Part shown: one piece after another, positions 30,389 through 52,914 of the stretch
How the letters are laid out: the number at the start of each line of letters is the position of its first letter
Position numbering within the stretch: position 1 is the first letter of the stretch
Assembly: GCA_044224495.1 (NCBI GenBank)
Contig: JBGAKG010000005.1
Location: 44,711-108,710 of the forward strand
DNA from: Polyangiaceae bacterium
Lineage (GTDB): Bacteria > Myxococcota_A > Polyangia > Polyangiales > Polyangiaceae
Length of the DNA: 64,000 bases
Reading direction: 5' to 3'
The notes under the pieces: model-generated
Seen by the model: only the letters and a program-made list of their open reading frames with translations
Databases searched by the model: none
Told to the model about the DNA's origin: nothing
Position numbers and translations under genes: made by a program

Positions 30389-31114
30389 TCAGCCGCCGGC
30401 TTCGCCGGCCAGGATTCGGCGCGGACCCAGGTCGAGGAGGCGCACCGTCTCCTCCCGGCCCACGAGCTTCTCCAGCCTGGCGATGGAGCGCACCACGTCG
30501 TCCACGTCGGCGGGGCGGTGGGCGTCGGAGCACGCGGCTTCGTAGGCGTCCTCTTCCAGGAGCTTCTCGGCCACGCGCTGCGGCTGCGAGCCGTACTTCC
30601 CGACGAGCGCGCAGACGTCCAAGAGGAGCGCGGCGCCCACGTCGAGCAACGCATCCACCGCGTCCCGATCGCTCCAGACGGGCTGGTACCGCTCCGGGTG
30701 GGCGACGATCGGAACCAGGCCGTGCCGGCGGAGGTCGGCCAAGCGCTCGGGCAGACGAACGGGAAAGGCGCTCGGGTTCATCTCGACGAGCACCGCTCGC
30801 CCACCGGGGTAGGGGAGCCCGGCGCCGGAGAGCAGGCGGGCGAACGTGACGTCGTCGAACCAGTGCTCGCTCGCGAGCGCGCGCGCGGGGAGCTTGGCGG
30901 CGTGCGGAGCAATCGCGGCCTCGAACCCGGCGAACGCGGTCTCGAGGCGGGCGCGATCGTTGTCGAACATGCCCGGCCGCATGTGCGGCGTCGCGACGAC
31001 GGTCTCGAAACCAGCCTCGCCCAGGCGCTGGAGGAGCCGCAGACCGTCCTCCACCGAGCGAACCCCATCGTCGACCTGAGGGACGTAGTGCGAGTGCAAG
31101 TCCACGTAGCCCAC
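30389..31114 (-). CDS. PHP-domain tyrosine-protein phosphatase (CpsB/YwqE family)
   Basis: VDLHSHYVPQVDDGVRSVEDGLRLL...TVVATPHMRPGMFDN...IVAHPERY motif set of CpsB-type Mn-dependent PHP phosphatases. No ATG; start is a GTG at either index 163 or 169 of the track ORF, so start is within 31114..31132. Confidence 0.7.
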   Translation of the reverse strand: MGYVDLHSHYVPQVDDGVRSVEDGLRLLQRLGEAGFETVVATPHMRPGMFDNDRARLETAFAGFEAAIAPHAAKLPARALASEHWFDDVTFARLLSGAGLPYPGGRAVLVEMNPSAFPVRLPERLADLRRHGLVPIVAHPERYQPVWSDRDAVDALLDVGAALLLDVCALVGKYGSQPQRVAEKLLEEDAYEAACSDAHRPADVDDVVRSIARLEKLVGREETVRLLDLGPRRILAGEAGG

Positions 31115-31201
31115 GCTGCGGCTATACCACACCGACTCCGGGCGGTCCTCGTCCCACGTCCTCGCCGAGGTGAAGTCGAGTATAGTCGCGCTCCACCAGG
31201 C

Positions 31202-32434
31202 ATGGCCGCGCTCAACCCCCTGACGAGGGAGCTCGTCTTCAAGATCGTCTTCTATGGGCCCGGCCTCGGCGGCAAGACGACCACGCTCCAGACGATCCAC
31301 GCGCGGACCAAGCCCGAGTTCCGCGGGAAGATGGTCTCGCTCGCGACGCCCACCGATCGCACGCTCTACTTCGACTTCCTCCCGCTCCGGTTGCCGAAGG
31401 TCCGCAACCTGAGCGTGCGACTCCAGCTCTTCACCGTGCCGGGCCAGGTCTACTTCACGGCAACCCGCAAGCTCGTGCTGACGGGCTCGGATGGGATCGT
31501 GTTCGTGGCCGACTCGCAGAACGCGCGGATGGACGCGAACCAGGAGTCGCTCGACGACCTCAACGGCAACCTCGCCGAGCACGGGCGGAGCCTCTCGCAG
31601 ACGCCCCACGCGTTCCAATGGAACAAGCGCGACCTCGCTGACGTCGCCACGGTCGAGGAGCTCGATCGTCGCTTCAACCTGTTCGCGGCGCCGGCGACGG
31701 GGACGGTCGCCACGAGCGGGGAGGGCGTGTTCGACGCGCTCGACAAAATCACGCAGCTCGTCCTCGAGAACTACAAGGCGCAGATGCCCCGCGGCGGCGG
31801 CGGCGTCCCGATGCTCGACGCGGAGGACTCCGGGCTCGAGGTCGCCGTCCGCGGTCTGGCCGAGTCACCGCTCCCGCGGCCGCTTCCCGCGCCCGTCGCG
31901 CGCACGCCCGAGCCGCCGAGCGCGCGCGCGCCCGAGTCGCGCCCGCTCCCGGCCGCGCCTCCCGTCCACGCGCCCCAAGCTCAGGACCGTCCGCCGTCCG
32001 CACCGGCGATGGCAGCCGTGTCGCCCGTGCCGCCGTCGCAGCCGCGACCCGAGGTCACGGCCGAGCCGATCGCCGTCCGCGGGGTGAGCTTCGCCAACCT
32101 GTGGCCCGAGGGCGAGCGGGCCGACGTTCGCGCCGCCGAGACCGAGCTCGTGCGTGGGAGCTGGGGCCCTGCGATCCTGCGCTGCGACGTGGTGGTGGCG
32201 CGCACGCTCGCTGCTGCGGCGAGCCTCGCCGGGGGCGCGGCCGAGGCGCCTCGCGATCCGGCGGTGGTGGCGATGCTCCTCGGGATCGACGGGCCGGCCT
32301 ACCTCCGCTTCCGCCAGCTCGTTCGGGCGGCCCGGAGCCTCCGGCCGGTCGCCGAGGAAGAGGCCCTGGGGGCCTACCATTTCGCCCTCGACGTGCGGCG
32401 GGCCCGGATGCAGCTGGAAGCCGCTACGAGTTAG
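31202..32434 (+). CDS. MglA-like Ras-superfamily small GTPase with about 230-aa C-terminal extension (Pro-rich linker plus unknown domain)
   Basis: Residues 1-190 align motif-for-motif with gliding-motility MglA: KIVFYGPGLGGKTTTLQ (G1), TDRTLYFDFLP (G2/Arg-finger region), FTVPGQVYF (MglA-type G3 with Gln), NKRD (G4), SGEGVFD (G5). Followed by PRPLPAPVARTPEPPSARAPESRPLPAAPP linker and a 120-aa C-terminal domain. Confidence 0.8.
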   Translation: MAALNPLTRELVFKIVFYGPGLGGKTTTLQTIHARTKPEFRGKMVSLATPTDRTLYFDFLPLRLPKVRNLSVRLQLFTVPGQVYFTATRKLVLTGSDGIVFVADSQNARMDANQESLDDLNGNLAEHGRSLSQTPHAFQWNKRDLADVATVEELDRRFNLFAAPATGTVATSGEGVFDALDKITQLVLENYKAQMPRGGGGVPMLDAEDSGLEVAVRGLAESPLPRPLPAPVARTPEPPSARAPESRPLPAAPPVHAPQAQDRPPSAPAMAAVSPVPPSQPRPEVTAEPIAVRGVSFANLWPEGERADVRAAETELVRGSWGPAILRCDVVVARTLAAAASLAGGAAEAPRDPAVVAMLLGIDGPAYLRFRQLVRAARSLRPVAEEEALGAYHFALDVRRARMQLEAATS

Positions 32435-32526
32435 CCAGGCCGCCCGCCAGGCTGGAGCGGAAAACCTCGCGAACGCCGTTACGGAAACAGGTGAACGGAT
32501 GGGCGGGTCGGTGTAGAATTCTAGCG

Positions 32527-34221
32527 ATGGTCGAGACGCTCGCGCCAGACGATCTGATCGAGGAAGCGCTGTCCGCGGACGCGCTCCGTCGGGGGACGCG
32601 TCTCGCGCGCTACGAGCTCCTCGTTCCGATCGCGAAGGGCGGCATGGCTCGAGTGTGGGCCGCGCGCCTCCACGGCCAGCGCGGCTTCTCGAAGACGGTC
32701 GCGATCAAGACGATTTTGCCACACCTCGCGGAGGAGCCCGAGTTCGAGCGCATGTTCCTCGACGAGGCGCGCATCGCGGCGCTCGTCCATCACCCGAACG
32801 TCTGCGAGATCTACGAGCTCGGTGAAGAGGGCAAGGTCCTCTACATCGTGATGGAGTGGGTCAACGGGGAGTCGCTCATGCAGCTCCTCCGTTCGTCGGG
32901 GAAGATGGCTCCGATGGACGCGCGCCTCGCGGCGAAGATCGTGTCCGACGCGTGTGCGGGGCTCCACGCTGCGCATCAGCTCACCGACGACGATGGCCGT
33001 TCGCTCGGCGTCGTCCACCGCGACGTCTCCCCCCACAACATCCTCGTCGGCTCCGACGGGCAGGTGAAGGTCGCCGACTTCGGCGTCGCGAAGGCGCTCG
33101 GCCAGATGCACAGCGCCACGCAGGCGGGGCAGGCGAAGGGCAAGATGGCGTACATGGCGCCCGAGCAGATCGCCGGCAACGCCGACCGCCGGAGCGACGT
33201 GTTCTCGATGGGCATCGTCCTCTACGAGGCGACGACCGGTCAGCGCCCGTTCACCGGTTCGAACGATGCGGAGATCATGCACGCAGTTCTCGGCGGACAG
33301 ATCACGCCTCCGACGCGGATCATCCGGAGCTACCCGCCCGAGCTCGAGCAGATCGTACTGAAGGCGATGGCGTCGGATCCCGCGCAGCGGTACGCCACGG
33401 CGGAGCGGATGCGTGTCGCGATCGAGGAGTTCCTCGCGCGGAGCGGCTCGCTCGTCACGGCGGCCATGATCGGCGGGTTCGTGCAGCAGCGGATCGGCCC
33501 CGAGCTCGAGAAGCGGCGCGAGAAGATCCGCGTCGCGGCGAACGCGACCGCCCGCACCGACGACGCGAGCTCCCCGAACCACGCGGGCGTCGTCGCCACC
33601 GGAACGCCGTCCGTCCAGAGCCTGGTCGAGGGCGTCCAATCGGGCCAACGCCCGGTTCCACCGGCGCCCGCCGGTCCCACTTCGGTACCGGAGCCTGCGC
33701 CGCCGAGCACGGGGAAGTACGTCCTCGCCGCGGTCATCGGCATCCTCGTCGCGGTCGGCCTCGGCACGGGCGTGATCCTCTACCTCCGGAAGCAACAGGA
33801 CGACGGCTTCACCGCGCGCGGCAACGCGACGGCAGCCGCGCCCGCGAGCATCGCTGCAAGCGCAGCGATGCCGAGCGCGGCGGCGCATGCGCCTCTCCAC
33901 ACGGGCCCGGTCGCCTTCAATGGTCTCCCGCCCGACGCGGTGCTGGTGGTCGACGGGATGCTCCTCGATCGCAGCGCGCGCACCGTCGAGCGCCCGCCGG
34001 TCGGTACGAAGCGCTCGGTCGTCATTCGGGACCCTGGCTTCCTCGACGAGTCCATCACGATCGACGACACGACTCCGCCCTCGCTCGACGTCACCCTCAC
34101 GATCGGCTCGCCGTCGGCACTCCCGACGACGCCGACCGCGACCGCAACGGGTGCCACTCCCACCGCCACTGGATCGGGCAAGAAACCACCGCCCGTCGCG
34201 CTTCCGCAAAATCCCTACTGA
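32527..34221 (+). CDS. Hanks-type Ser/Thr protein kinase, single TM, extracytoplasmic PEGA-like C-terminal domain
   Basis: VAIK, HRDVSPHNIL, DFG (ADFGVAK), APE (MAPEQ) subdomains; TM helix YVLAAVIGILVAVGLGTGVILYL; C-terminal VVDG...VVIRDPGF resembles PEGA. Confidence 0.85.
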   Translation: MVETLAPDDLIEEALSADALRRGTRLARYELLVPIAKGGMARVWAARLHGQRGFSKTVAIKTILPHLAEEPEFERMFLDEARIAALVHHPNVCEIYELGEEGKVLYIVMEWVNGESLMQLLRSSGKMAPMDARLAAKIVSDACAGLHAAHQLTDDDGRSLGVVHRDVSPHNILVGSDGQVKVADFGVAKALGQMHSATQAGQAKGKMAYMAPEQIAGNADRRSDVFSMGIVLYEATTGQRPFTGSNDAEIMHAVLGGQITPPTRIIRSYPPELEQIVLKAMASDPAQRYATAERMRVAIEEFLARSGSLVTAAMIGGFVQQRIGPELEKRREKIRVAANATARTDDASSPNHAGVVATGTPSVQSLVEGVQSGQRPVPPAPAGPTSVPEPAPPSTGKYVLAAVIGILVAVGLGTGVILYLRKQQDDGFTARGNATAAAPASIAASAAMPSAAAHAPLHTGPVAFNGLPPDAVLVVDGMLLDRSARTVERPPVGTKRSVVIRDPGFLDESITIDDTTPPSLDVTLTIGSPSALPTTPTATATGATPTATGSGKKPPPVALPQNPY

Positions 34222-39388: not shown

Positions 39389-40099
39389 TCACGGGCAGAT
39401 GCCGTACTCGACGCCCTGCACGAGCACGCTCGGGTTGAGCGCCGTGCAGCTCCCGCTCGTGCACGACGTCCCGACCTTGCACCACTTGTGACACGTGTTG
39501 TCGGTGAGGCAGATCGTGCCCTGCGAACACGCGAACGGGTTGGAGCTCGAGCACGTCGAGCTGGTCCCGGCGCCGACGCAGTCCGTCTCGCCGTTCGTCG
39601 TCGCGATGCAGTTGCCCGTCCCGCACGCCGCGGCCGGCGAGAGGAGCGAGCACTTCATGCGGCAGATCTTGAGGTTCGGAACGTCGCCGCCGTTGCCGTC
39701 CTGGAGGTTCACGCAGACGTCCGTCTTGGGATCCGTGCACGTGCCGCTCGCGCTGCAGAAGGCATGACAGGCGCCGAGCTCGCAGCTCAGGCCGACCGCA
39801 CAGTCGGCGGTGGTGCTGCACGCCGAGCCCATCGGCTTCGAGCCGGCGCTGACGCACGAGGCCGTCCCCGCCGTGTCGGTGATGTCGCACGTCTGATTCG
39901 CCCCGCAGCCGCACTGCGGGCTCACGCCGCAGGCGTTGCTCGGAGGCGCGGTCTTGCAGTTCGGATCGGCGTCCTTCGGCGGCGAACCCGAGTCCTGCGG
40001 CGTCGACCCCCCGTCCCCCGCGTCGGGCTTCACGAAGCCGCTGCTGCCGACGGCACAGGCGGCGAGGACGAACGGAAGGGCGAGGAGAGCGGAGCGCAT
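39389..40099 (-). CDS. Cys-rich lipoprotein (myxobacterial Cys-repeat type)
   Basis: Lipobox VLAAC; more than 30 Cys in repeated CxxxxC/GTC modules. Confidence 0.55.
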   Translation of the reverse strand: MRSALLALPFVLAACAVGSSGFVKPDAGDGGSTPQDSGSPPKDADPNCKTAPPSNACGVSPQCGCGANQTCDITDTAGTASCVSAGSKPMGSACSTTADCAVGLSCELGACHAFCSASGTCTDPKTDVCVNLQDGNGGDVPNLKICRMKCSLLSPAAACGTGNCIATTNGETDCVGAGTSSTCSSSNPFACSQGTICLTDNTCHKWCKVGTSCTSGSCTALNPSVLVQGVEYGICP

Positions 40100-40121
40100 G
40101 GCGCGGTCTCTTAGCTCCATC

Positions 40122-41165
40122 TCAGCCGTGGTCCAGCTCGACGACGTTCTCGAGCGTGCCGAGCAGGTCGATGTCGAGCGCCACGACGTCGCCGGGCTCG
40201 AGCCACTGGTTGTCGGTGATCTTCGACCCGTTCAGCTCGAGGAAGCATCCCGTCCCGACCGTGCCCGAGCCGATGACGTCGCCCGGGTACAGCGTGACGC
40301 CGTAGCTCGCGCGCTCGAGGATTTGCGCGAACGTCCAGTTCATCTGCGCGACGTTCCCCTCGGAGACCTGCTTGCCGTTCACGCGCGCGCGCATCGCGAG
40401 GTCGAAGACGGCGCCGTTCGCCGTCTTCTTCGTGCGCGGGGCGAGCTCGTCGAGCGTGACCAACCACGGGCCGAGCCCGGTCGCGAAGTCCTTGCCCTTC
40501 GCGGGCCCGAGCGAGAGCTTCATCTCCTCCATCTGGAGCGTGCGCGCCGAGAAGTCGTTCATGATCGTGAGGCCGAAGATCGCCTCGTCCGCGTTCGCTG
40601 CGGTGAGGTTCCGCGCTTCCTTCCCCACGACGATCGCCGCCTCGAGCTCGAAGTCGAGCTTGTCGAGGTGGAGCTTCATCACCCGCAGCGGGCCGGGCCC
40701 GATCACCGCCTGGTGGTTCGTGAAGTAGAAGACCGGGAACTGATCGAACTCGGGGATCATCTCGAGGCCGCGGTTGCGGCGCGCCGTCTCGACATGCTGA
40801 CGGAACGCGTAGCCGTCGCGCATCGACGGCGGGCGCGGGATCGGCGCTTCGAGCTTCACGCTCGCGAGCGGAAGAAGAAGCGGCGCACCCTCGAAGGTCG
40901 CCGGGAGCTTCCCCGCCGCGTGCTCCGCCACGATCGCGTCGGCAGCGGCGCGCGCGGCGGCGGCGTGCTGAACGAAGCCGAGCACCCCCGCGCCGTAGCG
41001 ATCGACGACGTGCGCGGTGTCGCACGGGCGACCTGCCGCGTGCTCGTGCCACGCGAACGCGCGGGCCAGGTCCAGCACGCTCGCGCCGCTGGTGGTGGGA
41101 TCGCCGAGGACGATGCCTCCGCGAGGGTGGCCGTGCGCATCGGTGCGGTAGGTGACGAGCTTCAT
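40122..41165 (-). CDS. Fumarylacetoacetate hydrolase (FAH) family protein
   Basis: IFGLTIMNDFSAR, GKDFATGLGPWLVT, DVIGSGTVGTG motifs of FAH fold. Start at ATG index 187 of track ORF. Confidence 0.8.
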   Translation of the reverse strand: MKLVTYRTDAHGHPRGGIVLGDPTTSGASVLDLARAFAWHEHAAGRPCDTAHVVDRYGAGVLGFVQHAAAARAAADAIVAEHAAGKLPATFEGAPLLLPLASVKLEAPIPRPPSMRDGYAFRQHVETARRNRGLEMIPEFDQFPVFYFTNHQAVIGPGPLRVMKLHLDKLDFELEAAIVVGKEARNLTAANADEAIFGLTIMNDFSARTLQMEEMKLSLGPAKGKDFATGLGPWLVTLDELAPRTKKTANGAVFDLAMRARVNGKQVSEGNVAQMNWTFAQILERASYGVTLYPGDVIGSGTVGTGCFLELNGSKITDNQWLEPGDVVALDIDLLGTLENVVELDHG

Positions 41166-41213
41166 GGCGGCTCCCTTTTCGCAAGCGACGCGTGCTAAAC
41201 GCAAGGCCGAAAC

Positions 41214-41687
41214 GTGTACCTGAGACTCCCCAAAGCCGCCCTCGGCGTCCTCCGCGAGGTCGGGCGCCACATCCTCAAGCGACCGGTCGTCGGTGTGGCC
41301 GCGATCGCGCGGGACGGGGAGGGGCGCATCCTCCTCGTTCGGCGCGGGGACACGGGCACCTGGGCGCTCCCGGGCGGGACCCTCGAGTGGGGTGAGACGC
41401 TCGCCGCGACCCTCCCGCGCGAGCTCGCCGAGGAGTGCGGGGTGGACGCTCCGACCGCGGTCGAGGTGTGCGGCGTCTACTCGCGCCCCGACCGGGACCC
41501 GCGCTTCCACGCCGTGACCGTCCTGGTTCGGTGCCGCGTCGAGGGCCCGGCCCGCGGCCCGAAGAACGTCCTCGAGATCCGGGAAGCCCGTTTCTTCGCC
41601 CCGGCGGACGTGCCCGCCGAGCTGGCCATGTCGATGACCGACATGCTCGCGGCCGGGCTCGCCAACGGTCCCGTCGTCCTCGAGTGA
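41214..41687 (+). CDS. NUDIX hydrolase
   Basis: Nudix box GGTLEWGETLAATLPRELAEECG. Confidence 0.7.
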   Translation: MYLRLPKAALGVLREVGRHILKRPVVGVAAIARDGEGRILLVRRGDTGTWALPGGTLEWGETLAATLPRELAEECGVDAPTAVEVCGVYSRPDRDPRFHAVTVLVRCRVEGPARGPKNVLEIREARFFAPADVPAELAMSMTDMLAAGLANGPVVLE

Positions 41688-41721
41688 GATCCTTTCGCCG
41701 GCTCGGGCGTACACGCCCGAC

Positions 41722-42864
41722 ATGGAGACGATCGGCGAGTACAGGGTCGTTCGGTTGGTGGGTGAAGGTGGGATGGGGAAGGTCTACGAGGCCGAAGAGC
41801 GCCTCTCGGGGCGCCGCGTCGCCCTGAAGGTCCTCCGCCCCGAGCTGACGGGCGACGACGAGGGCCGCCGCCTCTTCACCAACGAGATGAAGATCCTCGC
41901 GCAACTCGAGCACGAGAGCCTGGTCCGCAGCCTCGCGTCGTTCGAGCACGAGGGCCGCTTGGTGCTCGTGCTCGAGTACCTCGAAGGCGAGACGCTCCGG
42001 AGCCGCCTCCAGCGCGTGGGCAAGCTCGGTTGGATGGACGCGGTCGGCATCGCCGCCCGCATCGCCGCCGCGCTCGAGGTCGCGCACGAGAAGGGCATCG
42101 TCCACCGCGATCTCAAGCCCGAGAACGTGATGCTCGTCGGTGCGCCCGGGGAAGGCACGGCCGCGAAGGTGATGGACTTCGGTGTCGCCAAGATCCTGTG
42201 CGCGCACACGGGGAACGTCCCGTCGCAGAGCGTGGGCACGCTCCAGTACATGAGCCCCGAGCAGATCGACGCGAAGCCGATCGATGGCCGCAGCGATCTC
42301 TACGCGCTCGGCCTCTTGCTCTACGAGATGATCGGCGGCGCTCCGCCGTTCCGCTCCGCGTCCCCGCGCGAGCTCCTGAACCTCCAGTGCACGGCCACGC
42401 CCGCGCCGCTCCCGAACGCGAGCGAGCTCCCGCGCGGCGTGCGCGAGCTCGTGACGAAGCTCCTGGCGAAGGCGCCGGGCGACCGCCCCCCGACGGCCGC
42501 GGACGTGAGCCGGACGCTCGCGCCGTTCCTGCCGGACGCGCCCGAGCCGCTGGCAGCCAAGGCCGAGACCGAAGCCAAGGTCGAGACCGAAGCCAAGGCC
42601 GAGACCGAAGCCAAGGCCGAGACCGAAGTCAAGGCCGAGCCGACGCAGGAGCCCAAGGCCACCGCGGAGGCGCGCACGCCGATGCCCGCGCCGAAGCGTG
42701 CGCCGACCGCCCGCGCGTCGCGCGAGGTCGCGAACCGCAAGGCCGTGGTGGTGCTGCTCACGGCGGGGCTCCTCTCGTTCGCGCTCACGTTCGCCGTTCG
42801 CCAACAAATGGCGGAGGGAAAGAACTTTTCCGAGGCTGTCTCGTCCCTGGTGAAAACGCCATGA
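41722..42864 (+). CDS. Hanks-type Ser/Thr protein kinase with C-terminal TM anchor and (AKAETE)n repeat linker
   Basis: GEGGMGKVY, VALK, HRDLKPEN, DFGVAK, SPEQ subdomains; 18-bp in-frame tandem repeat; C-terminal TM helix VVVLLTAGLLSFALTFAV. Confidence 0.85.
   Translation: METIGEYRVVRLVGEGGMGKVYEAEERLSGRRVALKVLRPELTGDDEGRRLFTNEMKILAQLEHESLVRSLASFEHEGRLVLVLEYLEGETLRSRLQRVGKLGWMDAVGIAARIAAALEVAHEKGIVHRDLKPENVMLVGAPGEGTAAKVMDFGVAKILCAHTGNVPSQSVGTLQYMSPEQIDAKPIDGRSDLYALGLLLYEMIGGAPPFRSASPRELLNLQCTATPAPLPNASELPRGVRELVTKLLAKAPGDRPPTAADVSRTLAPFLPDAPEPLAAKAETEAKVETEAKAETEAKAETEVKAEPTQEPKATAEARTPMPAPKRAPTARASREVANRKAVVVLLTAGLLSFALTFAVRQQMAEGKNFSEAVSSLVKTP
42556..42639 (+). repeat. 18-bp tandem repeat x4.7 (gccaaggccgagaccgaa) encoding (AKAETE)n inside the kinase gene
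   Basis: Four near-identical 18-bp units plus a partial unit, in frame. Confidence 0.8.
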
Positions 42865-44462
42865 AGCTCCGCAACGTCCTCGCGCTCGCCCTCGTCATGA
42901 CCGCGGCCGGTTCGGCCGCCGCCTTCGCCGTCACGCCGGGAGCTCCCGCCACGACGGCGACGTCGCAGGAGCCCGGTGCCAAGAGCACGAGCGAGGCGCC
43001 GAAGCCTCCGCCGCTCCCGCCGTCCCGCTTCCAGGGCAACGGGACGCTCGCGATCGACGCGCGCCTCGGCCACGACTCCGTCGCCAAGGACGGCACCGGC
43101 GAGACCTACCTGATGGCCTCGATCACGGCTGCCGATGCGAAGAACGTCGCGCCGCCGCTCAACCTGGCGCTCGTCATCGACAAGTCGGGCTCGATGAAGG
43201 GCGACCGCATCGCGCGCGCGATCGAAGGCGCGAGCGGCATCGTCGACCGGCTCCGCGAGGGGGACGTCGTCACCGTCGTCGCGTTCGACACCAAGGCCGA
43301 CGTGGTCGTCGCTCCGACCGAGATCAAGGCCGGCAACCGCGCCGCGGTGACCTCGAAGATTCGCTCGATTGCCCTCGGCGGCGACACCTGCATCTCGTGC
43401 GGGCTCGAGAAGGCGATGGACGCGCTCCAGACCGCCTCCATCACCGGTCCCCACACGTCGCGCATGATCCTCCTGTCCGACGGCGTCACCAACAACGGCA
43501 TCAAGGACATCCCCGGCCTCCGCGAGATGGCCGCCAAGATGCGCGACGGCGGCTTCACCATCAGCACGATCGGCGTCGACGTCGACTTCGACGAGAAGGT
43601 GATGGCCGCGATCGCGAACGAGTCGAACGGCAAGCACTACTTCGTCTCCGACGCGGCCGCGCTCCCGAACGTCTTCGCGCAGGAGCTGGATGGCCTGCTC
43701 GCCACGGTTGCGAACGACGCCGAGGTCGAGCTCGATCTGGCTCCCGGGGTCGTCGTCGATCAGGTCTTCGATCGCACCTTCCGGCGCGAGGTCGACGGCA
43801 CCGGCGTGAAGGTCTTCGTCCCGATGGGGACCTTCGCCGGCAAGCAGGAGAAGACGCTCCTCCTCAAGCTCCGCGTCCCGGTCGACACGGCCGGCGAGCT
43901 CAAGGTCGCCGACGTGCACCTCGTCTACAAGGACAAGGAAGCCGGCGCCGAGGGCAACGTCGCAGGTGCGCTGACGGTGGGCGTCGTCGCCGCCGAGCTC
44001 GCGCAGAAGGACCTCGATCCGTTCGTCGCGGCGCGCGTCGACAAGAGCATGACCGCGAGCACGCTGACCGAAGCGAACAAGCTCTTCGAAGAAGGTCGCG
44101 TCGACGAGGCGCGCGCAGCGCTCCGCGGCCGAAGCGCGACGCTCGCCGCGAACGTCGGGCACCTCGGGGGCAAGCTCGGGGACTCGGACAAGGCGGAGCT
44201 CGAGAGCTCGAACGCCCAGCAGCTCGCGCTCCTCGACCGCGCCTCGGCGAACTTCGCCCCGGCGGCCGAGGCAGCTCCTCCGGTCGTCGGCGGGTTCGCC
44301 GGCGGTGGGAGCGGTACCACCGGTACGGTCGCGGCGACCAAGGCGGCCTCGCGCCCGATGGCCACGGCCACCGCCATCACCGCGACTCCCGCAGCGGCGC
44401 CGAAGGCGGCTCGCGCGCAGGTCCGCGCGAACCAGCAAGCGGCCTCCGATCTCGGTCTCTGA
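42861..44462 (+). CDS. Secreted von Willebrand factor type A (VWA) domain protein
   Basis: ATGA overlap with kinase stop. Signal peptide; MIDAS-like DKSGSM...TVVAFD...LLSDGVTNNG. Confidence 0.8.
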   Translation: MKLRNVLALALVMTAAGSAAAFAVTPGAPATTATSQEPGAKSTSEAPKPPPLPPSRFQGNGTLAIDARLGHDSVAKDGTGETYLMASITAADAKNVAPPLNLALVIDKSGSMKGDRIARAIEGASGIVDRLREGDVVTVVAFDTKADVVVAPTEIKAGNRAAVTSKIRSIALGGDTCISCGLEKAMDALQTASITGPHTSRMILLSDGVTNNGIKDIPGLREMAAKMRDGGFTISTIGVDVDFDEKVMAAIANESNGKHYFVSDAAALPNVFAQELDGLLATVANDAEVELDLAPGVVVDQVFDRTFRREVDGTGVKVFVPMGTFAGKQEKTLLLKLRVPVDTAGELKVADVHLVYKDKEAGAEGNVAGALTVGVVAAELAQKDLDPFVAARVDKSMTASTLTEANKLFEEGRVDEARAALRGRSATLAANVGHLGGKLGDSDKAELESSNAQQLALLDRASANFAPAAEAAPPVVGGFAGGGSGTTGTVAATKAASRPMATATAITATPAAAPKAARAQVRANQQAASDLGL

Positions 44463-44525
44463 GCGGCGTCCGAGCAAGGTGCCAGGTGCGTTGAGATCCC
44501 GCGTCGGCCGCGTCATGATGGTGCC

Positions 44526-46328
44526 GTGGCCAACGCGCCCATCGACGAAGGCCGCACCCTGGAGTCCGCCGACGCGGCTTCGGGTACGCGCGAGCGTCCC
44601 CGGGCCGTTCGGCTGAGCGCGGCGCCCGCGGACGGGCGCCTTCGTTCGTTCGCGCGGGGGCGGACCCGGCCGCGTGCGATTGCGTGGTTCGGGTTCACCG
44701 CGTTCTGGGGACACCTGCGGCACCTGGTCGCCTCCGCGATCGCGACCGAGAACATCGACTCGCGCCAGTGGATGGTGCCGGAGCGAGCCGACGAGCTCCT
44801 CGCGCGCTGCGTCGCCATCCTCGGCGAGGCGGGCGCGAAAGAGGGAGCCACCCTCGCCGCCGCGATGGGCGGAGAGGTCTGGCTCGACTTCGTCGCCGAC
44901 ACCGGCGACGACGTGACGGTCTCGACCGCGGTCGGCAAGCTCGTCGCCCGCGCGTACGAGCTCGAAGACGGTACGGCGCTCCCGCGCGGCCAGGTGCTGA
45001 TGCTCGGCGGCGATCTCGCGTACCCGGTGGCGACCGTGCGCGAGATGACGCGCCGCCTGGTCGAGCCGTGGAACGCGATCTTCGAGGCCGAGGACGACGG
45101 CATCCCGCGCCTGCTGCTCGCCGTGCCCGGCAACCACGACTGGTACGACGGGCTCGACGGCTTCGCGCGCCTCTGTCAGGTGCACTGCGACTTCGAGCGC
45201 CCGCCGCCGCGGCGCGAGACGTTGCACCCCGTGACGAACGAGCACCCGGTCCTCGCGTGGGTGGAGGCGTTCTCGCGTGGCGAGGCGGTGCGGAAGCCCG
45301 ACGCGCTCTCGCTCTACGGGTATTTCCCCGCCCAGCGCACGAGCTACTTCCGGCTCCCGCTCGCGGAGGGCTTGGATCTCTGGGGCGTCGATCGGCAGCT
45401 CAAGCAGATCGACTCGCGCCAGCGTGACTTCTTCCGGAGCGCTCCGCGCCACGCCCGCCTCGTCGTGCTCCCCGATCCGGCGCGCGCGTGGGGCGAGCGC
45501 CGGCCTCACGGGGTGGCGTCGCTCGAAGCGCTCGACCTCCACCCCGAGGCGCAGCGCCTCTACGTTCTCTCCGGCGACATCCACCACTACGAGCGCTCGG
45601 CCGACGGCGAGAGCGTCCACGTCGTGGCCGGCGGCGGCGGCGCGTTCCTCCAAGGCGCGCGCATGGCGAAGAACGGGCGCTACCGGATCGACGCCGAGTT
45701 CCCCGGTCCGAAGGCGTCGGCCGGCATGCTCCGCGCGTTGCCGCTCCACCTCGCGACCGGCGGCGCGGGTTGGTTGATCGTGTGCATCTTCGGCGCGCTC
45801 GAGGCGTGGGCGCTCTGGGCCCACCTCGCGCACGGCATCCGAACCTCCGCTCCGGTCGCCGTGATCATCGGGCTCATCGTGACGGTGAGCACGGTCGGCC
45901 TCATCGGGTGGCGCCGCCATCGCAAGCACCGCATCATCCCGTTCGCGAGCGCGTTCGGCGCGCTCATCGGAGCGCTGCCGCTCGCGATCGGCGTCACCGT
46001 GGATCAAGTCGGCCTCGCGGCGCTCGGGCCCACGTTCGCGTCGCGGATCGCGGTGGTGTGCGCGGCGTGGCTCGCCGCGACGTTCGTGTGCGGCGCGGGC
46101 TTCGGCCTGATGCTCGCCGCGCTGGCACGCCTCGGACTCAACCACGCGCAGCCGTTCGCCGCGCTCGGCATGCCCACCCACAAGCACCTCGTGCGCATGC
46201 GCATTCGCGAGTCGAAGGGGGAGACCGCGATCGACACGTTCGTCATCGGGCAGGTCGATCCGGTGGGTGGAAGCCCGCCCGTCCTCGTCGACCGCTTCAC
46301 CTGGAGCGCGCGTGCGAAGGACGGGTAG
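44526..46328 (+). CDS. Calcineurin-like metallophosphoesterase with C-terminal polytopic membrane domain
   Basis: GTG start. GGDLAYP, GNHDWYDG, GDIHHYE motifs; 4-5 C-terminal TM helices. Confidence 0.75.
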   Translation: MANAPIDEGRTLESADAASGTRERPRAVRLSAAPADGRLRSFARGRTRPRAIAWFGFTAFWGHLRHLVASAIATENIDSRQWMVPERADELLARCVAILGEAGAKEGATLAAAMGGEVWLDFVADTGDDVTVSTAVGKLVARAYELEDGTALPRGQVLMLGGDLAYPVATVREMTRRLVEPWNAIFEAEDDGIPRLLLAVPGNHDWYDGLDGFARLCQVHCDFERPPPRRETLHPVTNEHPVLAWVEAFSRGEAVRKPDALSLYGYFPAQRTSYFRLPLAEGLDLWGVDRQLKQIDSRQRDFFRSAPRHARLVVLPDPARAWGERRPHGVASLEALDLHPEAQRLYVLSGDIHHYERSADGESVHVVAGGGGAFLQGARMAKNGRYRIDAEFPGPKASAGMLRALPLHLATGGAGWLIVCIFGALEAWALWAHLAHGIRTSAPVAVIIGLIVTVSTVGLIGWRRHRKHRIIPFASAFGALIGALPLAIGVTVDQVGLAALGPTFASRIAVVCAAWLAATFVCGAGFGLMLAALARLGLNHAQPFAALGMPTHKHLVRMRIRESKGETAIDTFVIGQVDPVGGSPPVLVDRFTWSARAKDG

Positions 46329-47730
46329 GCGCGGCGCGGCGCTCGCCGGCCTCGTCGCCCTCGCGACCGCGTGCGGCGCCCACGTGAACGCGCCGCGCTC
46401 GTCCATTCGCTCCGACCTGCGCTACGTCGTCGACGCGTCGCGCGGGACGACCATCACCGTCACCGCCGACTTCGCGATCACCGGCGCCTCCGTCGTCGAC
46501 CTGCCCGACGACATGGGGCCCGCGCTCGTGTCGTTCGCCGTCTGGCGCGACGAGCGCTGGGTCGAGCTCCCGGTCCGCGATCGGTTCGACGTCCCGGAGT
46601 GCCGCATCGCGTGCCGGCTCCGCTACGTGCTCGACCTCACGCGCCCGGATCGGAGCCTCGACACGGTGATGCGCGCGAGCGGCGGCGCCGTCACGCCGAC
46701 CTACGCGTGGCTCGCGCGCCCGGAGCCGCTCCCCGTCGGCACCACGCACGTCGACGTGATTGCCCCGGCGCTCCCCGCACCCGACGCGGGCAAGGAGAGC
46801 TTCGTCGACGTTCCCGCCCACTCGGCGGCGACGAGCGTCGGCTTCTCCAACGACGACTTCGCGGAGGGAAGCTTCGCCGCGTTCGGCAAGGTGCGCGTCG
46901 CGCCGCTGGCGGTGCCCGGCGCCGAGGTCGACCTCGTCCGGATCGGCGACGCGCCGAAGCTCGGCGAGCCGGGCCTCGTGCAGTGGGCGCGCGACGCCGC
47001 CGGATGCGTGAGCACCCTCTTCGGGAAGTTCCCCGTCACGCACGCGAGCGTCTTCGTCGTGCCGGTGCGCGACGCGGACGAGGTGGTGTTCGGCAAGGTG
47101 CTCTCGCTCGGCGGGCCGGCCATCCTCGCGCTCACGGGCGAACAGCTCCCGGTCGAAGGGATCCACGACGACTGGGTGCTCGTGCACGAGATGATGCACC
47201 TCGGCGCGCCCACTTTCTTCGGCAAGCTCCGCTGGCTCGGCGAGGGGACCGCCACCTACTACGAGGCCGTGCTCCGCACGCGCTGCGGGTGGCGAACGCC
47301 GGCGCAGCTCTGGGGCGAGTTCGCGCGCTCGATGCCGCGCGGGGTCATGCCGAAGGGGAGCGAGCGCCCGCTCGACGACGGGGAAGGGATCGACGACGTG
47401 TACTGGGGCGGCGCGCTCTTCCTCTGGGCCGCGGACGTGAAGCTCCGCGAGCACGGCTCGTCGCTCGACGACGTCATGCGCGGCGTCCTCGCCGAGGGCG
47501 GCGACGGGACCAAGGTCTGGACGATCGAGCGGTTGCTCGACGCGGGCGCCCGCATCTCCAAGACGACCGTGCTCCGCGAGCTCTACGACGCCTTCGGCGC
47601 CGGACGCGGCCAGATCGATCTCGCGCGGTTGCTCGCCGACCTCGGGATCGAGGGGAAGGGCGACGGCGTGAGGCTCCGCGACGACGCCCCTTTGGCGGCG
47701 GTTCGAAAGGCCATCGATTCGCGCCGCTGA
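46312..47730 (+). CDS. HExxH zinc-metallopeptidase-like lipoprotein
   Basis: Lipoprotein signal RRTGRRGAALAGLVALATAC; HEMMH zinc-binding motif with downstream E (EGTATYYE). Start reassigned to in-frame GTG (index 16), overlapping previous gene by 17 nt. Confidence 0.6.
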   Translation: MRRTGRRGAALAGLVALATACGAHVNAPRSSIRSDLRYVVDASRGTTITVTADFAITGASVVDLPDDMGPALVSFAVWRDERWVELPVRDRFDVPECRIACRLRYVLDLTRPDRSLDTVMRASGGAVTPTYAWLARPEPLPVGTTHVDVIAPALPAPDAGKESFVDVPAHSAATSVGFSNDDFAEGSFAAFGKVRVAPLAVPGAEVDLVRIGDAPKLGEPGLVQWARDAAGCVSTLFGKFPVTHASVFVVPVRDADEVVFGKVLSLGGPAILALTGEQLPVEGIHDDWVLVHEMMHLGAPTFFGKLRWLGEGTATYYEAVLRTRCGWRTPAQLWGEFARSMPRGVMPKGSERPLDDGEGIDDVYWGGALFLWAADVKLREHGSSLDDVMRGVLAEGGDGTKVWTIERLLDAGARISKTTVLRELYDAFGAGRGQIDLARLLADLGIEGKGDGVRLRDDAPLAAVRKAIDSRR

Positions 47731-47751
47731 ACTGCTGACACGTGAACGGGT

Positions 47752-49146
47752 GTGAGGTACCCTGGGCGGGTGTCGTTTCGGAGCAAGCTCGAGCGCCTGA
47801 GTCAGCGGACGGCCCTGCCGGCCTCGGCGCTGCCTGCGATCGAGCCGGTCGGCGAGCCCGAGGTCGATCCCTCCGTGTCGGCATCGGCACCCGCGCCGTC
47901 ACCGATCTCGGCCACGCTCGAGGATCTCCGCGCGCGCATGCGCGCCGTGCTCGCGCGCTCGGTCGAGAAGCGCCCGCCGCGTCCGGTGGACGACTCGGTG
48001 GAGCTCCCCTTCGTCGCCGAAGAGACGGAGCACGGCCTTCGCCACCGGCGCGTGCTCCACTTCGGCGGCTCCGCGCGGGTGGGGCGGGCGCCCGTCGCGA
48101 GCGCGCGCAACGCCGACGCACGCCTCCTCTCGCTCCTGGCGCTCGACCCAGCGCTCGCGGGGCTCTCGCTGGAACGTGCACTCTACATCGATACGGAGAC
48201 CACCGGGTTGTCCGGCGGCGCCGGCACGGTCGCGTTCCTCGTCGGGATCGCGCGCTTCGGGGGCCCGCTCGAGGGACTGATCGTCGAGCAACTCCTGGTT
48301 CGCCAGCTCGGCGAGGAAGCTCCGATGCTCGCGCTCCTGCGCGAGCGGATGGAAGAGGCCGACCTGCTCGTGTCGTTCAACGGCAAGGCGTTCGATCTTC
48401 CGCTCCTCCGCACGCGGTTCGTCCTCGCGCGGATCGCTCCGCCCACGCCGAAGCCGCACCTCGATCTGCTGCACGTCGCGCGGCGGCTGCACAAGCCGCG
48501 GGGCGTCGACTGCCGGCTCGTGTCGCTCGAGGAGCGCATCCTCGGGTTCGTGCGCCAGGACGACTGCCCGAGCGGCGAAGTGAGCGGGCGATACTTGCAC
48601 TTTCTCCGGACCGGAGACGCACGGTCGCTCCTCGGCGTCATCGAGCACAACGCCTGGGACGTCGTGACGATGGCAGCGCTCGTCGGGCTGTACGGCGAGC
48701 CGCTCGCGGGGAGCCAGCTCCACGCGGGCGATCTGGTCGGCGTCGCACGGACGCTCAAGCGTGCGCGCGCCCACGACGATGCGCTGGAGGCCGCCGAGCT
48801 CGCCGCCGCAGGCGGCGCAGGCCCCGAGTCGCTCCGCGCCCGGGCCGAGGTCCACAAGGCGCGCGGCGATCGCGCCCGCGCGCTGGCCGATCTCGAGGCG
48901 CTGCTGGCGGAGGCGCCCTCGGCCGCGGTTCGGCTCGAGCTCGCGAAGCTCTACGAGCACCACGTGAAGGACGCGCCCGGTCTCACGCGAGCGCTCGAGC
49001 TGGTCGACGAGGGCGTCGCGGAGCCGGAGGACGCTCAGGCCAAGCGGCGTTCGCGGCTCGAGCGAAAGCGCGTCGCGCGGAGCCCCCAATCGCCGCTCTT
49101 CCCCGCTGCGCCGGCGAAGCCGAAGAAGCGCGCGCGCTCGCTCTGA
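47752..49146 (+). CDS. RNase H-like (YprB/PF13482-type) putative 3'-5' exonuclease with C-terminal TPR-like region
   Basis: LYIDTETTGLSGGAGTVAFLVG...LVSFNGKAFDLPLL matches exonuclease motifs I/II of the YprB family. C-terminus helical, Ala-rich. Confidence 0.6.
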   Translation: MRYPGRVSFRSKLERLSQRTALPASALPAIEPVGEPEVDPSVSASAPAPSPISATLEDLRARMRAVLARSVEKRPPRPVDDSVELPFVAEETEHGLRHRRVLHFGGSARVGRAPVASARNADARLLSLLALDPALAGLSLERALYIDTETTGLSGGAGTVAFLVGIARFGGPLEGLIVEQLLVRQLGEEAPMLALLRERMEEADLLVSFNGKAFDLPLLRTRFVLARIAPPTPKPHLDLLHVARRLHKPRGVDCRLVSLEERILGFVRQDDCPSGEVSGRYLHFLRTGDARSLLGVIEHNAWDVVTMAALVGLYGEPLAGSQLHAGDLVGVARTLKRARAHDDALEAAELAAAGGAGPESLRARAEVHKARGDRARALADLEALLAEAPSAAVRLELAKLYEHHVKDAPGLTRALELVDEGVAEPEDAQAKRRSRLERKRVARSPQSPLFPAAPAKPKKRARSL

Positions 49147-49218
49147 CGGGCGCGGCGGGAAGGAATCGGGGGCGACCGCCGTCGGTCGAAACATGGTAAC
49201 AACCGGGCGCGAGGAGCC

Positions 49219-51725
<2,507 letters not shown>

Positions 51726-51726
<1 letters not shown>

Positions 51727-52247
51727 TGCGGCGGGCGGCAGCGCTCGTCTTCCTCGTCCTCTCGGCGTGCGGGTACCGGTCCGTCTACGCGACGCCGGCG
51801 GCAAAGCTCCACGTCAAGCTCGGACGCGTGGCCATCGCCGACGCCGCCGCCGCGAGCGAGGTCGTGAGCGGGGCGCGGGAGTACCTCGCGCGCGAGGGAG
51901 CGCTCGCGAGCGGCGACGGCTTCCCCGCGCTCGAGGTGGACGTGCTCCGCGTCGACGAGACGAGCGAAGGCATCTCCGCGACGGCAGCGAACGAACCGCG
52001 CGCGCGCGCGACGAGGCTCGGGGTCCTCGGCCGCGCGACGGTGGTCCCGCGCGACGGCGGGGACGCCACGACCGACACGGGAGACGTGCGCGCGAGCGAG
52101 CTCGTGGCGGTCCCGCTCGATCCGGCGGCGGAGCTCTCGGGGCGGAGCGACGCCGTGCGAGCGATCGCACGCAAGCTCGGGCAGAAGCTCGCTGCGCGAG
52201 CGCTGGGGCACCCGGAAGCGGGAGAGATCGAAGCGCAGGATCCGTAG
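51726..52247 (+). CDS. lptE: LPS-assembly lipoprotein LptE (RlpB)
   Basis: Start overlaps leuS stop (TGATG); lipobox LSACGY; conserved leuS-lptE synteny; size 173 aa. Confidence 0.6.
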
Positions 52248-52266
52248 TCCCAATCGGGGACTACGG
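52242..52266. other. 9-10 bp stem-loop (ccgtagtcc / ggactacgg) spanning the stop codons of convergent lptE and DUF72 genes
   Basis: Perfect inverted repeat; no U-tract. Possible shared attenuator/terminator hairpin. Confidence 0.35.
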
Positions 52267-52914
52267 CAGCTTCATCGCCTTCTTGAAGCGCTTCCCATCG
52301 GCGTACATGTCCACGTTCGTGAACACGTAGTGCACGGCCTTGTGCTTCGCGCTCTTCGCGAGGTCCGCGAGCTTGTCGATCGCCGGATCCTCGTAGCGGC
52401 TCTTGTGGCCCGCCGGGCCCGGCAGCCGGTAGTACGCGGTGTCCGCCTTGGAGAGCCCGTGCACGAGCGGGTCACGCGCGACGATCGCACCGCTGCCCTG
52501 GGCGGCGGCCTCGGCGTCCTTGATGTCCCAGGTCGGGGGCGCCTCCCAGACGACGCGATCGAACTTCTTCCGGACCGCGAGCAGGAAGTCCTTCACGCTC
52601 GCCTTCGTCGCCCGGCTCGCCGTGAAGTCCGGCGGCGCGACGAACACCGCCGTCGTCGCCGAGAGCTCCTTGCCGACGCCGAGGAGGTTCTTGAGCGCCG
52701 TCTCGGTGACCTTGCCGTCGCGGAAGCCCTCGAGACCGATCTCGCGTGGCGCGAGCATCGCGAACTCGAAGCCGGTCGGCGCCTCACGGCGCCAGCGCCG
52801 CACGGTGCCGATGCCCGGAAGCGCGACGTGCGTCTCCTGGACCTCGACGAACGAGAACTCCTTGAAGAACCTCGTCGCCGGTACGGGAAACCCCGCGCAT
52901 CCCACCACGATCAT
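52261..52914 (-). CDS. DUF72 (UPF0759) family protein
   Basis: MIVVGCAGFPV...YRLPGPAGHKSRYEDPAIDKLADLAK pattern typical of DUF72. Confidence 0.7.
   Translation of the reverse strand: MIVVGCAGFPVPATRFFKEFSFVEVQETHVALPGIGTVRRWRREAPTGFEFAMLAPREIGLEGFRDGKVTETALKNLLGVGKELSATTAVFVAPPDFTASRATKASVKDFLLAVRKKFDRVVWEAPPTWDIKDAEAAAQGSGAIVARDPLVHGLSKADTAYYRLPGPAGHKSRYEDPAIDKLADLAKSAKHKAVHYVFTNVDMYADGKRFKKAMKLP

Follow-up and report, generated by a model that had tools for sequence, protein, structure and literature searches.

A run of five tightly spaced genes in a Polyangia (Myxococcota) genome encodes a Hanks-type Ser/Thr kinase, an exported protein with a VWA domain, a membrane metallophosphoesterase (MPE), a lipoprotein with an HExxH motif (the HExxH protein) and a 3'-5' exonuclease (EXO). 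The run occupies positions 41722 to 49146, on the plus strand, of the stretch of DNA analysed here, 64 kb of contig JBGAKG010000005.1 with a G+C content of ~70% (hereafter the window). A sequence-only reading of the window had likened the run to kinase-VWA-phosphatase conflict systems. Based on comparison with related loci, it is probably a piece of conserved Polyangia core chromosome and not one system, with the kinase and the VWA protein as the only functional partners. The run is not a new five-part signalling or defence system.

The gene run and its conservation in relatives

Raw lists of open reading frames (ORFs) are full of artefacts at this G+C content, and a codon-position GC filter was used to arrive at a clean gene set. 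GC at the third codon position (GC3) of 0.89-0.94 supports five plus-strand genes between a FAA-hydrolase-family gene and leuS. As first described, the five genes share a strand and are separated by overlaps or by gaps of less than 70 bp. The kinase and VWA genes overlap by 4 nt (ATGA), 63 nt lie between the VWA and MPE genes, the MPE and HExxH genes overlap by 17 nt when the HExxH start is taken at 46312 (in agreement with the 472-aa database entry P0121), and 21 nt lie between the HExxH and EXO genes. The run extends past 49146, with leuS following on the same strand after a gap of 72 nt. A tightly spaced, co-directional gene run is not unusual in itself. The region from 41000 to 52000 contains no terminator-like site, and the only sigma-70-like consensus match across the run (9 of 12 positions, against 0.2 matches expected in shuffled sequence) falls in the gap between the VWA and MPE genes (44491..44519, plus strand). 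This weak match marks a possible internal promoter.

Relatives were collected with the MPE as an anchor (80 genome loci fetched), in which tblastn and a clustering of called ORFs served to locate the window genes. As a second anchor, metagenome contigs were scanned with an alignment of the VWA protein, and loci anchored on the HExxH protein were added. Among the 82 genome loci anchored on the MPE or the HExxH protein, the uninterrupted order of all five genes is limited to the window and to L001 (MPE 84% identical). Another arrangement, with all five families in one co-directional cluster and three extra genes inserted, occurs in eight genome loci. Conserved co-occurrence of the five genes, which the sequence-only reading had named as a check, fails: the MPE, HExxH and EXO genes each come and go independently.

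Labilithrix luteola, for instance, has the kinase, three redox genes, VWA, HExxH and EXO and lacks the MPE. The VWA gene is followed by HExxH with no MPE in this species and in L087, L088, L090, L091, L093, L163 and L164 (in the order VWA-HExxH-EXO in the last two), and HExxH is absent from L013, L014, L015, L019 and L061. Pendulispora brunnea has the order GlgP-OmpA-NUDIX-MPE-EXO-LeuRS-DUF72...Lnt with no kinase, VWA or HExxH gene at the locus, and L022 has FAA hydrolase-MPE-HExxH with neither kinase nor VWA. About 50 loci with an MPE 38-46% identical to that of the window lack all of the other four genes; the genes beside the MPE differ between subclades and are often on the opposite strand. 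Downstream of VWA in the VWA-anchored metagenome sample, the MPE gene comes next in 3 of 17 loci, HExxH is found without the MPE in 4 of 17, and neither is found in 10 of 17.

The backbone around these differences is shared. Genes for LPG synthase, an Arf-like GTPase, GlgP, LeuRS, a DUF72 protein, Lnt and a hybrid histidine kinase occur in the same order in the window, Pendulispora and Labilithrix, and the EXO-leuS adjacency is conserved from Pendulispora to Labilithrix. The window also contains the core genes atpD, dnaG, rpoD, glgP, leuS and lnt. The locus is thus best read as core-chromosome synteny with lineage-specific insertions and deletions. Explanations involving a mobile element or an RNA were considered and rejected: there is no Rfam family in 40000-52500, direct and inverted repeats flanking the run amount to short matches at chance level, the one notable repeat being the 18-bp array in the kinase linker, and neither GC content nor skew departs distinctly from its surroundings along the five genes.

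The kinase and the VWA protein as a putative split receptor

The kinase gene (41722..42864, plus strand; Pkinase E=5e-53) has intact catalytic motifs, with GxGxxG, VALK, HRDLKPEN, DFG and SPE visible in the translation. Hydropathy analysis identifies one hydrophobic segment (residues 341-359) followed by a tail of 21 residues. The protein has a cytoplasmic catalytic domain, a low-complexity linker, one transmembrane (TM) helix and this short extracytoplasmic tail, the layout that had been proposed for it. Within the linker, the (AKAETE)n stretch noticed earlier is encoded by a tandem array of five 18-bp units (42555..42643, plus strand; TRF period 18, 5.0 copies, 94% matches; repeat family D1). 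The linkers of the L001 and L083 kinases are K/E/T-rich and unrepeated, and the remaining orthologues have unrelated linkers. The array thus represents a recent expansion, in units of 18 bp, of such a linker rich in K, E and T.

The VWA gene (42861..44462, plus strand; VWA E=2e-20) encodes a signal-like segment at residues 6-24 by hydropathy, a MIDAS-type VWA domain, and beta-rich and helical C-terminal domains. The 11 orthologues compared are collinear and 48-80% identical, and the MIDAS residues D107, S109, S111, T176 and D207 are invariant in them, in line with the original description of a VWA (MIDAS) protein with a signal peptide. Two further conserved features were seen in this family. 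The VWA domain contains an invariant GGDTCISCG (CxxC) loop (43380-43400), and the extreme C-terminus (44397-44462) carries a motif, VRxNQQxAxDLx[FL], that is conserved in the 11 orthologues and follows a low-complexity spacer. This tail could be a sorting or docking signal.

Several lines of evidence connect the two proteins. Kinase and VWA genes lie in one co-directional cluster in at least 13 genome loci and in several metagenome loci, and only in the window and L001 are they directly adjacent in this order. In L117, a kinase gene comes immediately after a VWA gene. In L119, a single 944-codon ORF (L119:8513-11347) encodes a Hanks kinase, a TM helix and an extracytoplasmic region of the VWA family. 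The VWA part of this fusion matches residues 55-465 of the window VWA protein (39% identity, E=1e-74 over 415 residues, including the C-terminal domains outside the VWA domain), and its kinase part matches the window kinase with E=3e-31. At the loci open to inspection, the kinase...VWA block is either kept or missing in its entirety, and it is wholly absent from Pendulispora and L022.

The architecture of the L119 fusion has been described in PpkA, a transmembrane kinase whose sensor is a VWA domain outside the cell (PMC3224232). PpkA, which belongs to the H1 type VI secretion system (H1-T6SS) of Pseudomonas aeruginosa, and the window pair both combine a Hanks kinase in the cytoplasm with one TM helix and a MIDAS-type VWA domain beyond the membrane, and the L119 fusion of the window's own VWA family has exactly the PpkA architecture. 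Unlike PpkA, the window pair consists of two polypeptides from overlapping genes, the VWA protein has its own signal peptide, and in relatives the pair flanks redox genes. PpkA sits in a T6SS context with Fha1, PppA and TagR; no T6SS, FHA/Fha or PP2C/PppA domains were found among the neighbours scanned with Pfam (~29-57 kb).

Because of the L119 fusion, the L117 adjacency, the PpkA precedent and the behaviour of the block as a whole, we interpret the two proteins as a receptor kinase divided between two polypeptides. They are plausibly coupled partners, and the sole such pair among the five genes. Of the kinase-VWA-phosphatase triad that had been suggested, the kinase-VWA link stands (ATGA overlap, shared clusters, fusion), and membership of the phosphatase is not supported.

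While the link is supported by these comparisons, for the mechanism we infer the following. The cytoplasmic Hanks kinase would be anchored by its one TM helix, and the MIDAS-VWA protein, exported on its own, would act as the periplasmic sensor of the kinase by binding a ligand or metal. Ligand binding could change the association of the VWA protein with the TM helix and short tail of the kinase, and the altered association could in turn change kinase dimerisation and autophosphorylation. The pair would then be a two-polypeptide version of the kinase-TM-VWA architecture reported for PpkA, and a naturally divided system in which to study communication between a VWA sensor and a Hanks kinase.

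A redox gene trio between the pair in relatives

In 12 loci and in Labilithrix luteola, ~7 kb with three plus-strand genes separates the kinase from the VWA gene. The first gene encodes a kinase-like domain, a TM helix and then a multihaem cytochrome (CxxCH-rich, MtrC-like); the kinase-like domain apparently lacks the HRD and DFG motifs and is pseudokinase-like. The second encodes a membrane protein with cNMP-binding and 4Fe-4S domains, and the third a cytochrome-c3/4Fe-4S/FAD oxidoreductase. The trio was located at L017:1024-8336 and L081:735-7955, and also in L083, L086, L091, L093, L123, L163 and L164. Homologues of the trio are absent from the entire 64-kb window.

L083, the nearest relative after L001 (MPE 70% identical), retains the trio, as do the distant VWA orthologues L105 and L163. 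For this reason, its absence from the window lineage is probably a derived deletion. The kinase and VWA genes, which bracket the trio in relatives, would have been left overlapping by ATGA once it was lost. The tail of the window kinase after the TM helix is unlike that of the orthologue in L083, the closest trio-bearing relative, and so does not mark the end-points of the deletion.

The VWA-anchored metagenome sample gives an independent view. The oxidoreductase gene (c13) lies upstream of VWA in 15 of the 24 loci with enough upstream sequence, compared with the 3 of 17 in which the MPE gene comes next downstream. The steady partner of the VWA gene is therefore the redox trio, not the phosphoesterase. 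This kinase-associated trio of multihaem cytochrome, Fe-S and FAD proteins may deserve study itself.

The metallophosphoesterase

The MPE gene (44526..46328, plus strand) encodes a membrane metallophosphoesterase. The protein matches Pfam Metallophos only with E=0.22, and neither NCBIfam nor profile and sequence searches of the PDB returned anything for the family. The DxG, GDxxY and GNHD blocks are invariant in the family, as in purple acid phosphatases (PAPs) and their relatives (pig ACP5, 7ov8; Plasmodium GAP50, 3tgh; kidney-bean PAP, 6ofd; PhoD, 2yeq), which the MPE resembles. In contrast to PAPs, its last metal-ligand blocks are altered: the fifth reads GDIHH instead of GHxH, and the fourth (VxxH) was not identified by sequence motifs. 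The sequence is also too distant from PAPs for a Pfam or PDB profile. The GDxHG, GDxVDRG and GNHE motifs and the fold of the PPP family are missing. The MPE fold is PAP-like, and is neither PPP nor PP2C. Thus, the PPP-type phosphatase that had been considered can be discarded. The four C-terminal TM segments agree with the polytopic membrane domain first described, and the catalytic domain may belong to the calcineurin-like superfamily (PF00149).

The catalytic domain spans residues ~110-395 and is followed by the four TM helices (417-526) and a small C-terminal beta domain. Again unlike PAPs, the MPE lacks a signal peptide, is fused to these helices and the beta domain, and is predicted to face the cytoplasm. 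An RRHRKHR loop between TM2 and TM3 and an arginine-rich N-terminus point to a cytoplasmic catalytic domain, and this topology, taken alone, would allow it to act on the kinase. The most conserved stretch of the protein (44670-44760, residues ~49-83) is an N-terminal helix, PRAIAWFGFSAFWGHLRHLxASAIATxNxDSRQWM, which is nearly invariant in 62 homologues and has low confidence in the structural model. Its mean hydropathy of 0.79 is below the TM threshold. It could lie in the plane of the membrane or form a lid over the active site.

The family is large, with more than 2800 homologues, is uncharacterised, and is mostly found without kinases or VWA genes. At least 2274 representatives at 50% identity match its profile (544 with E<=1e-30). 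Among the 150 best matches listed, nearly all of the full-length ones have an N-terminal GNH[DE] domain followed by 3-10 TM segments. The Pfam Metallophos cut-off is reached by 2 of the 10 distant members scanned, and one of these two is fused to a phospholipase-D-like domain. In P0346 (1293 aa), PLDc_2 (E=1e-13) lies at the N-terminus, ahead of the metallophosphoesterase and TM domains. The fusion is no more than a hint of a lipid or phosphodiester substrate. For the window MPE, we infer that the substrate is most likely a membrane-associated phosphoester, such as a lipid or lipid-linked intermediate. The MPE thus points to a large, unstudied family of membrane metallophosphoesterases with a PAP fold, whose member in the window goes unrecognised by Pfam.

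A possible enrichment of kinases beside MPE genes (L008, L040, L053 and L060) was also considered and set aside, the frequency being judged, informally, to be about that of chance in kinase-rich genomes. In L165, the MPE gene (L165:4276-5983) is frameshifted into two tblastn segments on a nanopore-derived contig, probably through an assembly error, and an extra 420-aa gene of unknown family lies between VWA and MPE.

The peptidase and the exonuclease

The HExxH gene (46312..47730, plus strand) encodes a protein with an HEMMH motif and a lipobox-like LATAC sequence, and it overlaps the MPE gene, as expected from the earlier description of an overlapping HExxH lipoprotein. Residues H292, E293, H296 and E311 are invariant in the family. 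With the AF2 model (pLDDT 93) as query, the top Foldseek matches are M61 peptidases (8j9c, 7xyo and 4fgm; E about 1e-16 to 1e-14), followed by M1 aminopeptidases. The profile of the family matches PDB 4fgm with E=9e-4, PF05299 (M61) scores 15.6 bits, below its gathering cut-off of 22, and NCBIfam gives no match. In some of the source databases, homologues are entered under the names 'Peptidase M61 catalytic domain' or 'predicted metalloprotease with PDZ domain'. Like the M61 enzymes of Xanthomonas (8j9c) and Myxococcus fulvus (7xyo) and like 4fgm, the model has an N-terminal beta sandwich, a thermolysin-like catalytic domain, and an HExxH motif with a downstream Glu. In contrast to these, it is only 14-17% identical, carries a lipoprotein signal, and ends after the helical catalytic domain with no PDZ domain in the model. 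The protein is thus predicted to be a periplasmic, M61-like lipoprotein zinc aminopeptidase.

The EXO gene (47752..49146, plus strand) encodes an MrfB/YprB-type DEDDh exonuclease. It matches RNase_H_2 (PF13482) with E=1e-32 (113.8 bits; cut-off 22) and the crystal structure of MrfB (8un9) with E=4e-25, with DTETTGL, NGKAFD and HNxxD aligned; there is no NCBIfam match. MrfB itself, a partner of the helicase MrfA, acts on DNA as a 3'-5' exonuclease of the DEDDh type and has a TPR domain at its C-terminus (PMC11194089). The EXO protein shares with MrfB (YprB of Bacillus subtilis, mitomycin repair) the PF13482 core, a disordered N-terminus and a helical C-terminal tail. It differs in that its conserved neighbour is leuS, and no MrfA (YprA, DUF1998) helicase is adjacent or present among the window genes scanned. 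Of the TPR tail that had been assigned to it there is only a faint signal (TPR_14 E=0.002; 19.1 bits against a cut-off of 23.5), and the YprB-type exonuclease assignment agrees with the matches above. EXO is best annotated as an MrfB-like DNA-repair 3'-5' exonuclease.

Alternative readings of the run

A number of observations weigh against a core-chromosome run with a single functional pair. The kinase-VWA fusion was seen in one contig only, the 102-kb metagenome contig L119. The direction of the trio insertion or deletion is based on identity ranking and not on a rooted tree, and the comparison genomes all belong to one order with strong synteny, where linkage and shared ancestry are hard to separate either way. 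Cohesion beyond the kinase and VWA genes is possible in L163, where VWA, HExxH and EXO occur together without leuS, and in L165, where VWA-x-MPE-HExxH lies beside ArgRS and not beside EXO-leuS. Many loci show close spacing of the VWA and MPE genes or an overlap of their matches, and a run with no terminator-like site could be co-transcribed through all six genes, leuS included. For the MPE, the topology rests on hydropathy and the positive-inside rule and not on a dedicated predictor, and the substrate assignment is a guess.

There is a second reading, which we regard as rather unlikely. The kinase, redox trio, VWA, MPE and HExxH genes would form an envelope module of a Labilithrix-like clade, the window would hold a reduced form of it, and EXO and leuS would be bystanders. 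The MPE would act as a non-canonical phosphatase or in lipid signalling, and processing of the VWA protein or of its ligand would fall to the M61-like lipoprotein. Nearly every locus of this clade has MPE and/or HExxH directly after the VWA gene, and the VWA and MPE genes are often only ~15-30 nt apart or have overlapping matches. VWA, MPE and HExxH are kept together in L165, and VWA and HExxH in L163, despite a changed downstream backbone, and the VWA and HExxH proteins are both predicted to be periplasmic. Such a module is difficult to reconcile with the absence of the MPE from L. luteola and at least seven other loci, the absence of HExxH from five, and the 10 of 17 VWA-anchored loci with neither gene downstream. 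In addition, the MPE family is far wider than the cluster, and the evidence for the module is all adjacency within one order.

It is unlikely that all five genes are functionally unrelated and that the ATGA overlap merely records a 7-kb deletion by which two genes without any relation were joined. Such an origin would fit the confinement of direct kinase-VWA adjacency to the window and L001, and the relatives in which the kinase and VWA genes each abut a redox gene. Polyangia encode very many Ser/Thr kinases, so chance adjacency to a kinase gene should be common, and kinase-like matches do lie near the MPE in several unrelated loci. However, the kinase...VWA block is missing as a whole from Pendulispora and L022 and so behaves as a unit, a fused kinase-TM-VWA homologue exists in L119, and PpkA provides a precedent.

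More speculatively, and with a slim chance in our estimation, the VWA sensor, the kinase and the PAP-fold MPE could constitute a phospho-switch in Labilithrix-like Polyangia. The MPE would be the dedicated antagonist of the kinase, with the M61-like lipoprotein trimming either the VWA protein or that protein's ligand, and the window would hold the minimal form of an envelope-sensing module after loss of the trio. If true, this would make a metallophosphoesterase that is neither PPM nor PPP the dedicated antagonist of a Hanks kinase.

The likeness to ternary conflict systems, which the sequence-only reading had drawn, finds little in the gene content. The 'ternary' systems combine MoxR-vWA with VMAP, iSTAND or FtsH (Kaur et al. 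2020, PMC7159879), and a kinase, a PP2C and a stand-alone vWA occur as an accessory of actinobacterial GAP1-N2 GTPase systems (PMC7159879). The window resembles both in that it comes from a bacterium of multicellular lifestyle and encodes a vWA protein close to a Ser/Thr kinase and a phosphoesterase. It differs in its exported VWA protein, its non-PP2C phosphoesterase, the lack of effector diversification, and its core rather than mobile locus. No MoxR/AAA+ domain was found by Pfam in the five genes or in the neighbours scanned, and no VMAP, iSTAND or FtsH-like third component was found in the neighbours by Pfam, NCBIfam or PADLOC, no dedicated VMAP profile being used. A GAP1-N2 GTPase is likewise absent from the genes scanned, where the sole GTPase-like match is a weak Arf match (E=9.6e-4) ~10 kb upstream, in the backbone shared with Pendulispora. 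No effector domain was recognised on the VWA protein, and its collinear orthologues show no domain swapping. A defence system was also considered and rejected, as PADLOC returned only kinase models such as PD-T4-6, mad6 and PglW, judged to be generic ones that any Hanks kinase would match.

That all five genes form one kinase-VWA-phosphatase system, in which the MPE reverses the kinase and the peptidase and exonuclease are effectors, is hardly credible: the shared strand, the overlaps and gaps of at most 63 nt without terminator-like sites, the eight loci with all five families, and a predicted cytoplasmic MPE domain that could reach the kinase domain favour it, but the genes that define the known systems (MoxR, VMAP, PP2C, FHA and GAP1 GTPase; PMC7159879) are not adjacent, the phosphoesterase is PAP-like and stands alone in ~50 loci, MPE, HExxH and EXO are each dispensable from the cluster, the VWA protein and the peptidase are exported while the exonuclease and the kinase domain are cytoplasmic, orthologues are one-to-one without the effector swapping typical of conflict systems, PADLOC gives generic kinase matches only, and the run lies in core chromosome and continues into leuS. 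The mosaic distribution has already largely refuted it. The idea of an effector arm is likewise not supported, since HExxH and EXO are present or absent independently of the kinase and VWA genes. A new kinase-VWA-phosphatase system with effectors would add a class of signalling and conflict systems, and the evidence does not support one.

Flanking and other genes of the window

Upstream of the run, the FAA-hydrolase-family gene (40122..41723, minus strand; FAA_hydrolase E=2e-51) is divergent from the kinase gene, and the same divergent layout occurs in L001, L083, L086 and L123. The start of its longest ORF (41723) and the ATG of the kinase (41722) overlap head to head, with zero intergenic space for a promoter. 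Either one of the two starts has been placed wrongly, or the promoters are located within adjacent coding sequence. The tight divergent arrangement recurs in L083. Downstream, leuS (49219..51726, plus strand; tRNA-synt_1_2 E=8e-59) encodes leucyl-tRNA synthetase.

Further away in the window, two very large genes lie side by side (723-10972, minus strand; 1841 and 1575 aa), and apart from a few TPR matches they are not covered by Pfam. At 30518-34221, a second Ser/Thr kinase gene (Pkinase E=2e-41) adjoins the gene with the weak Arf-like small-GTPase domain, which Pendulispora also has in its backbone (L082).

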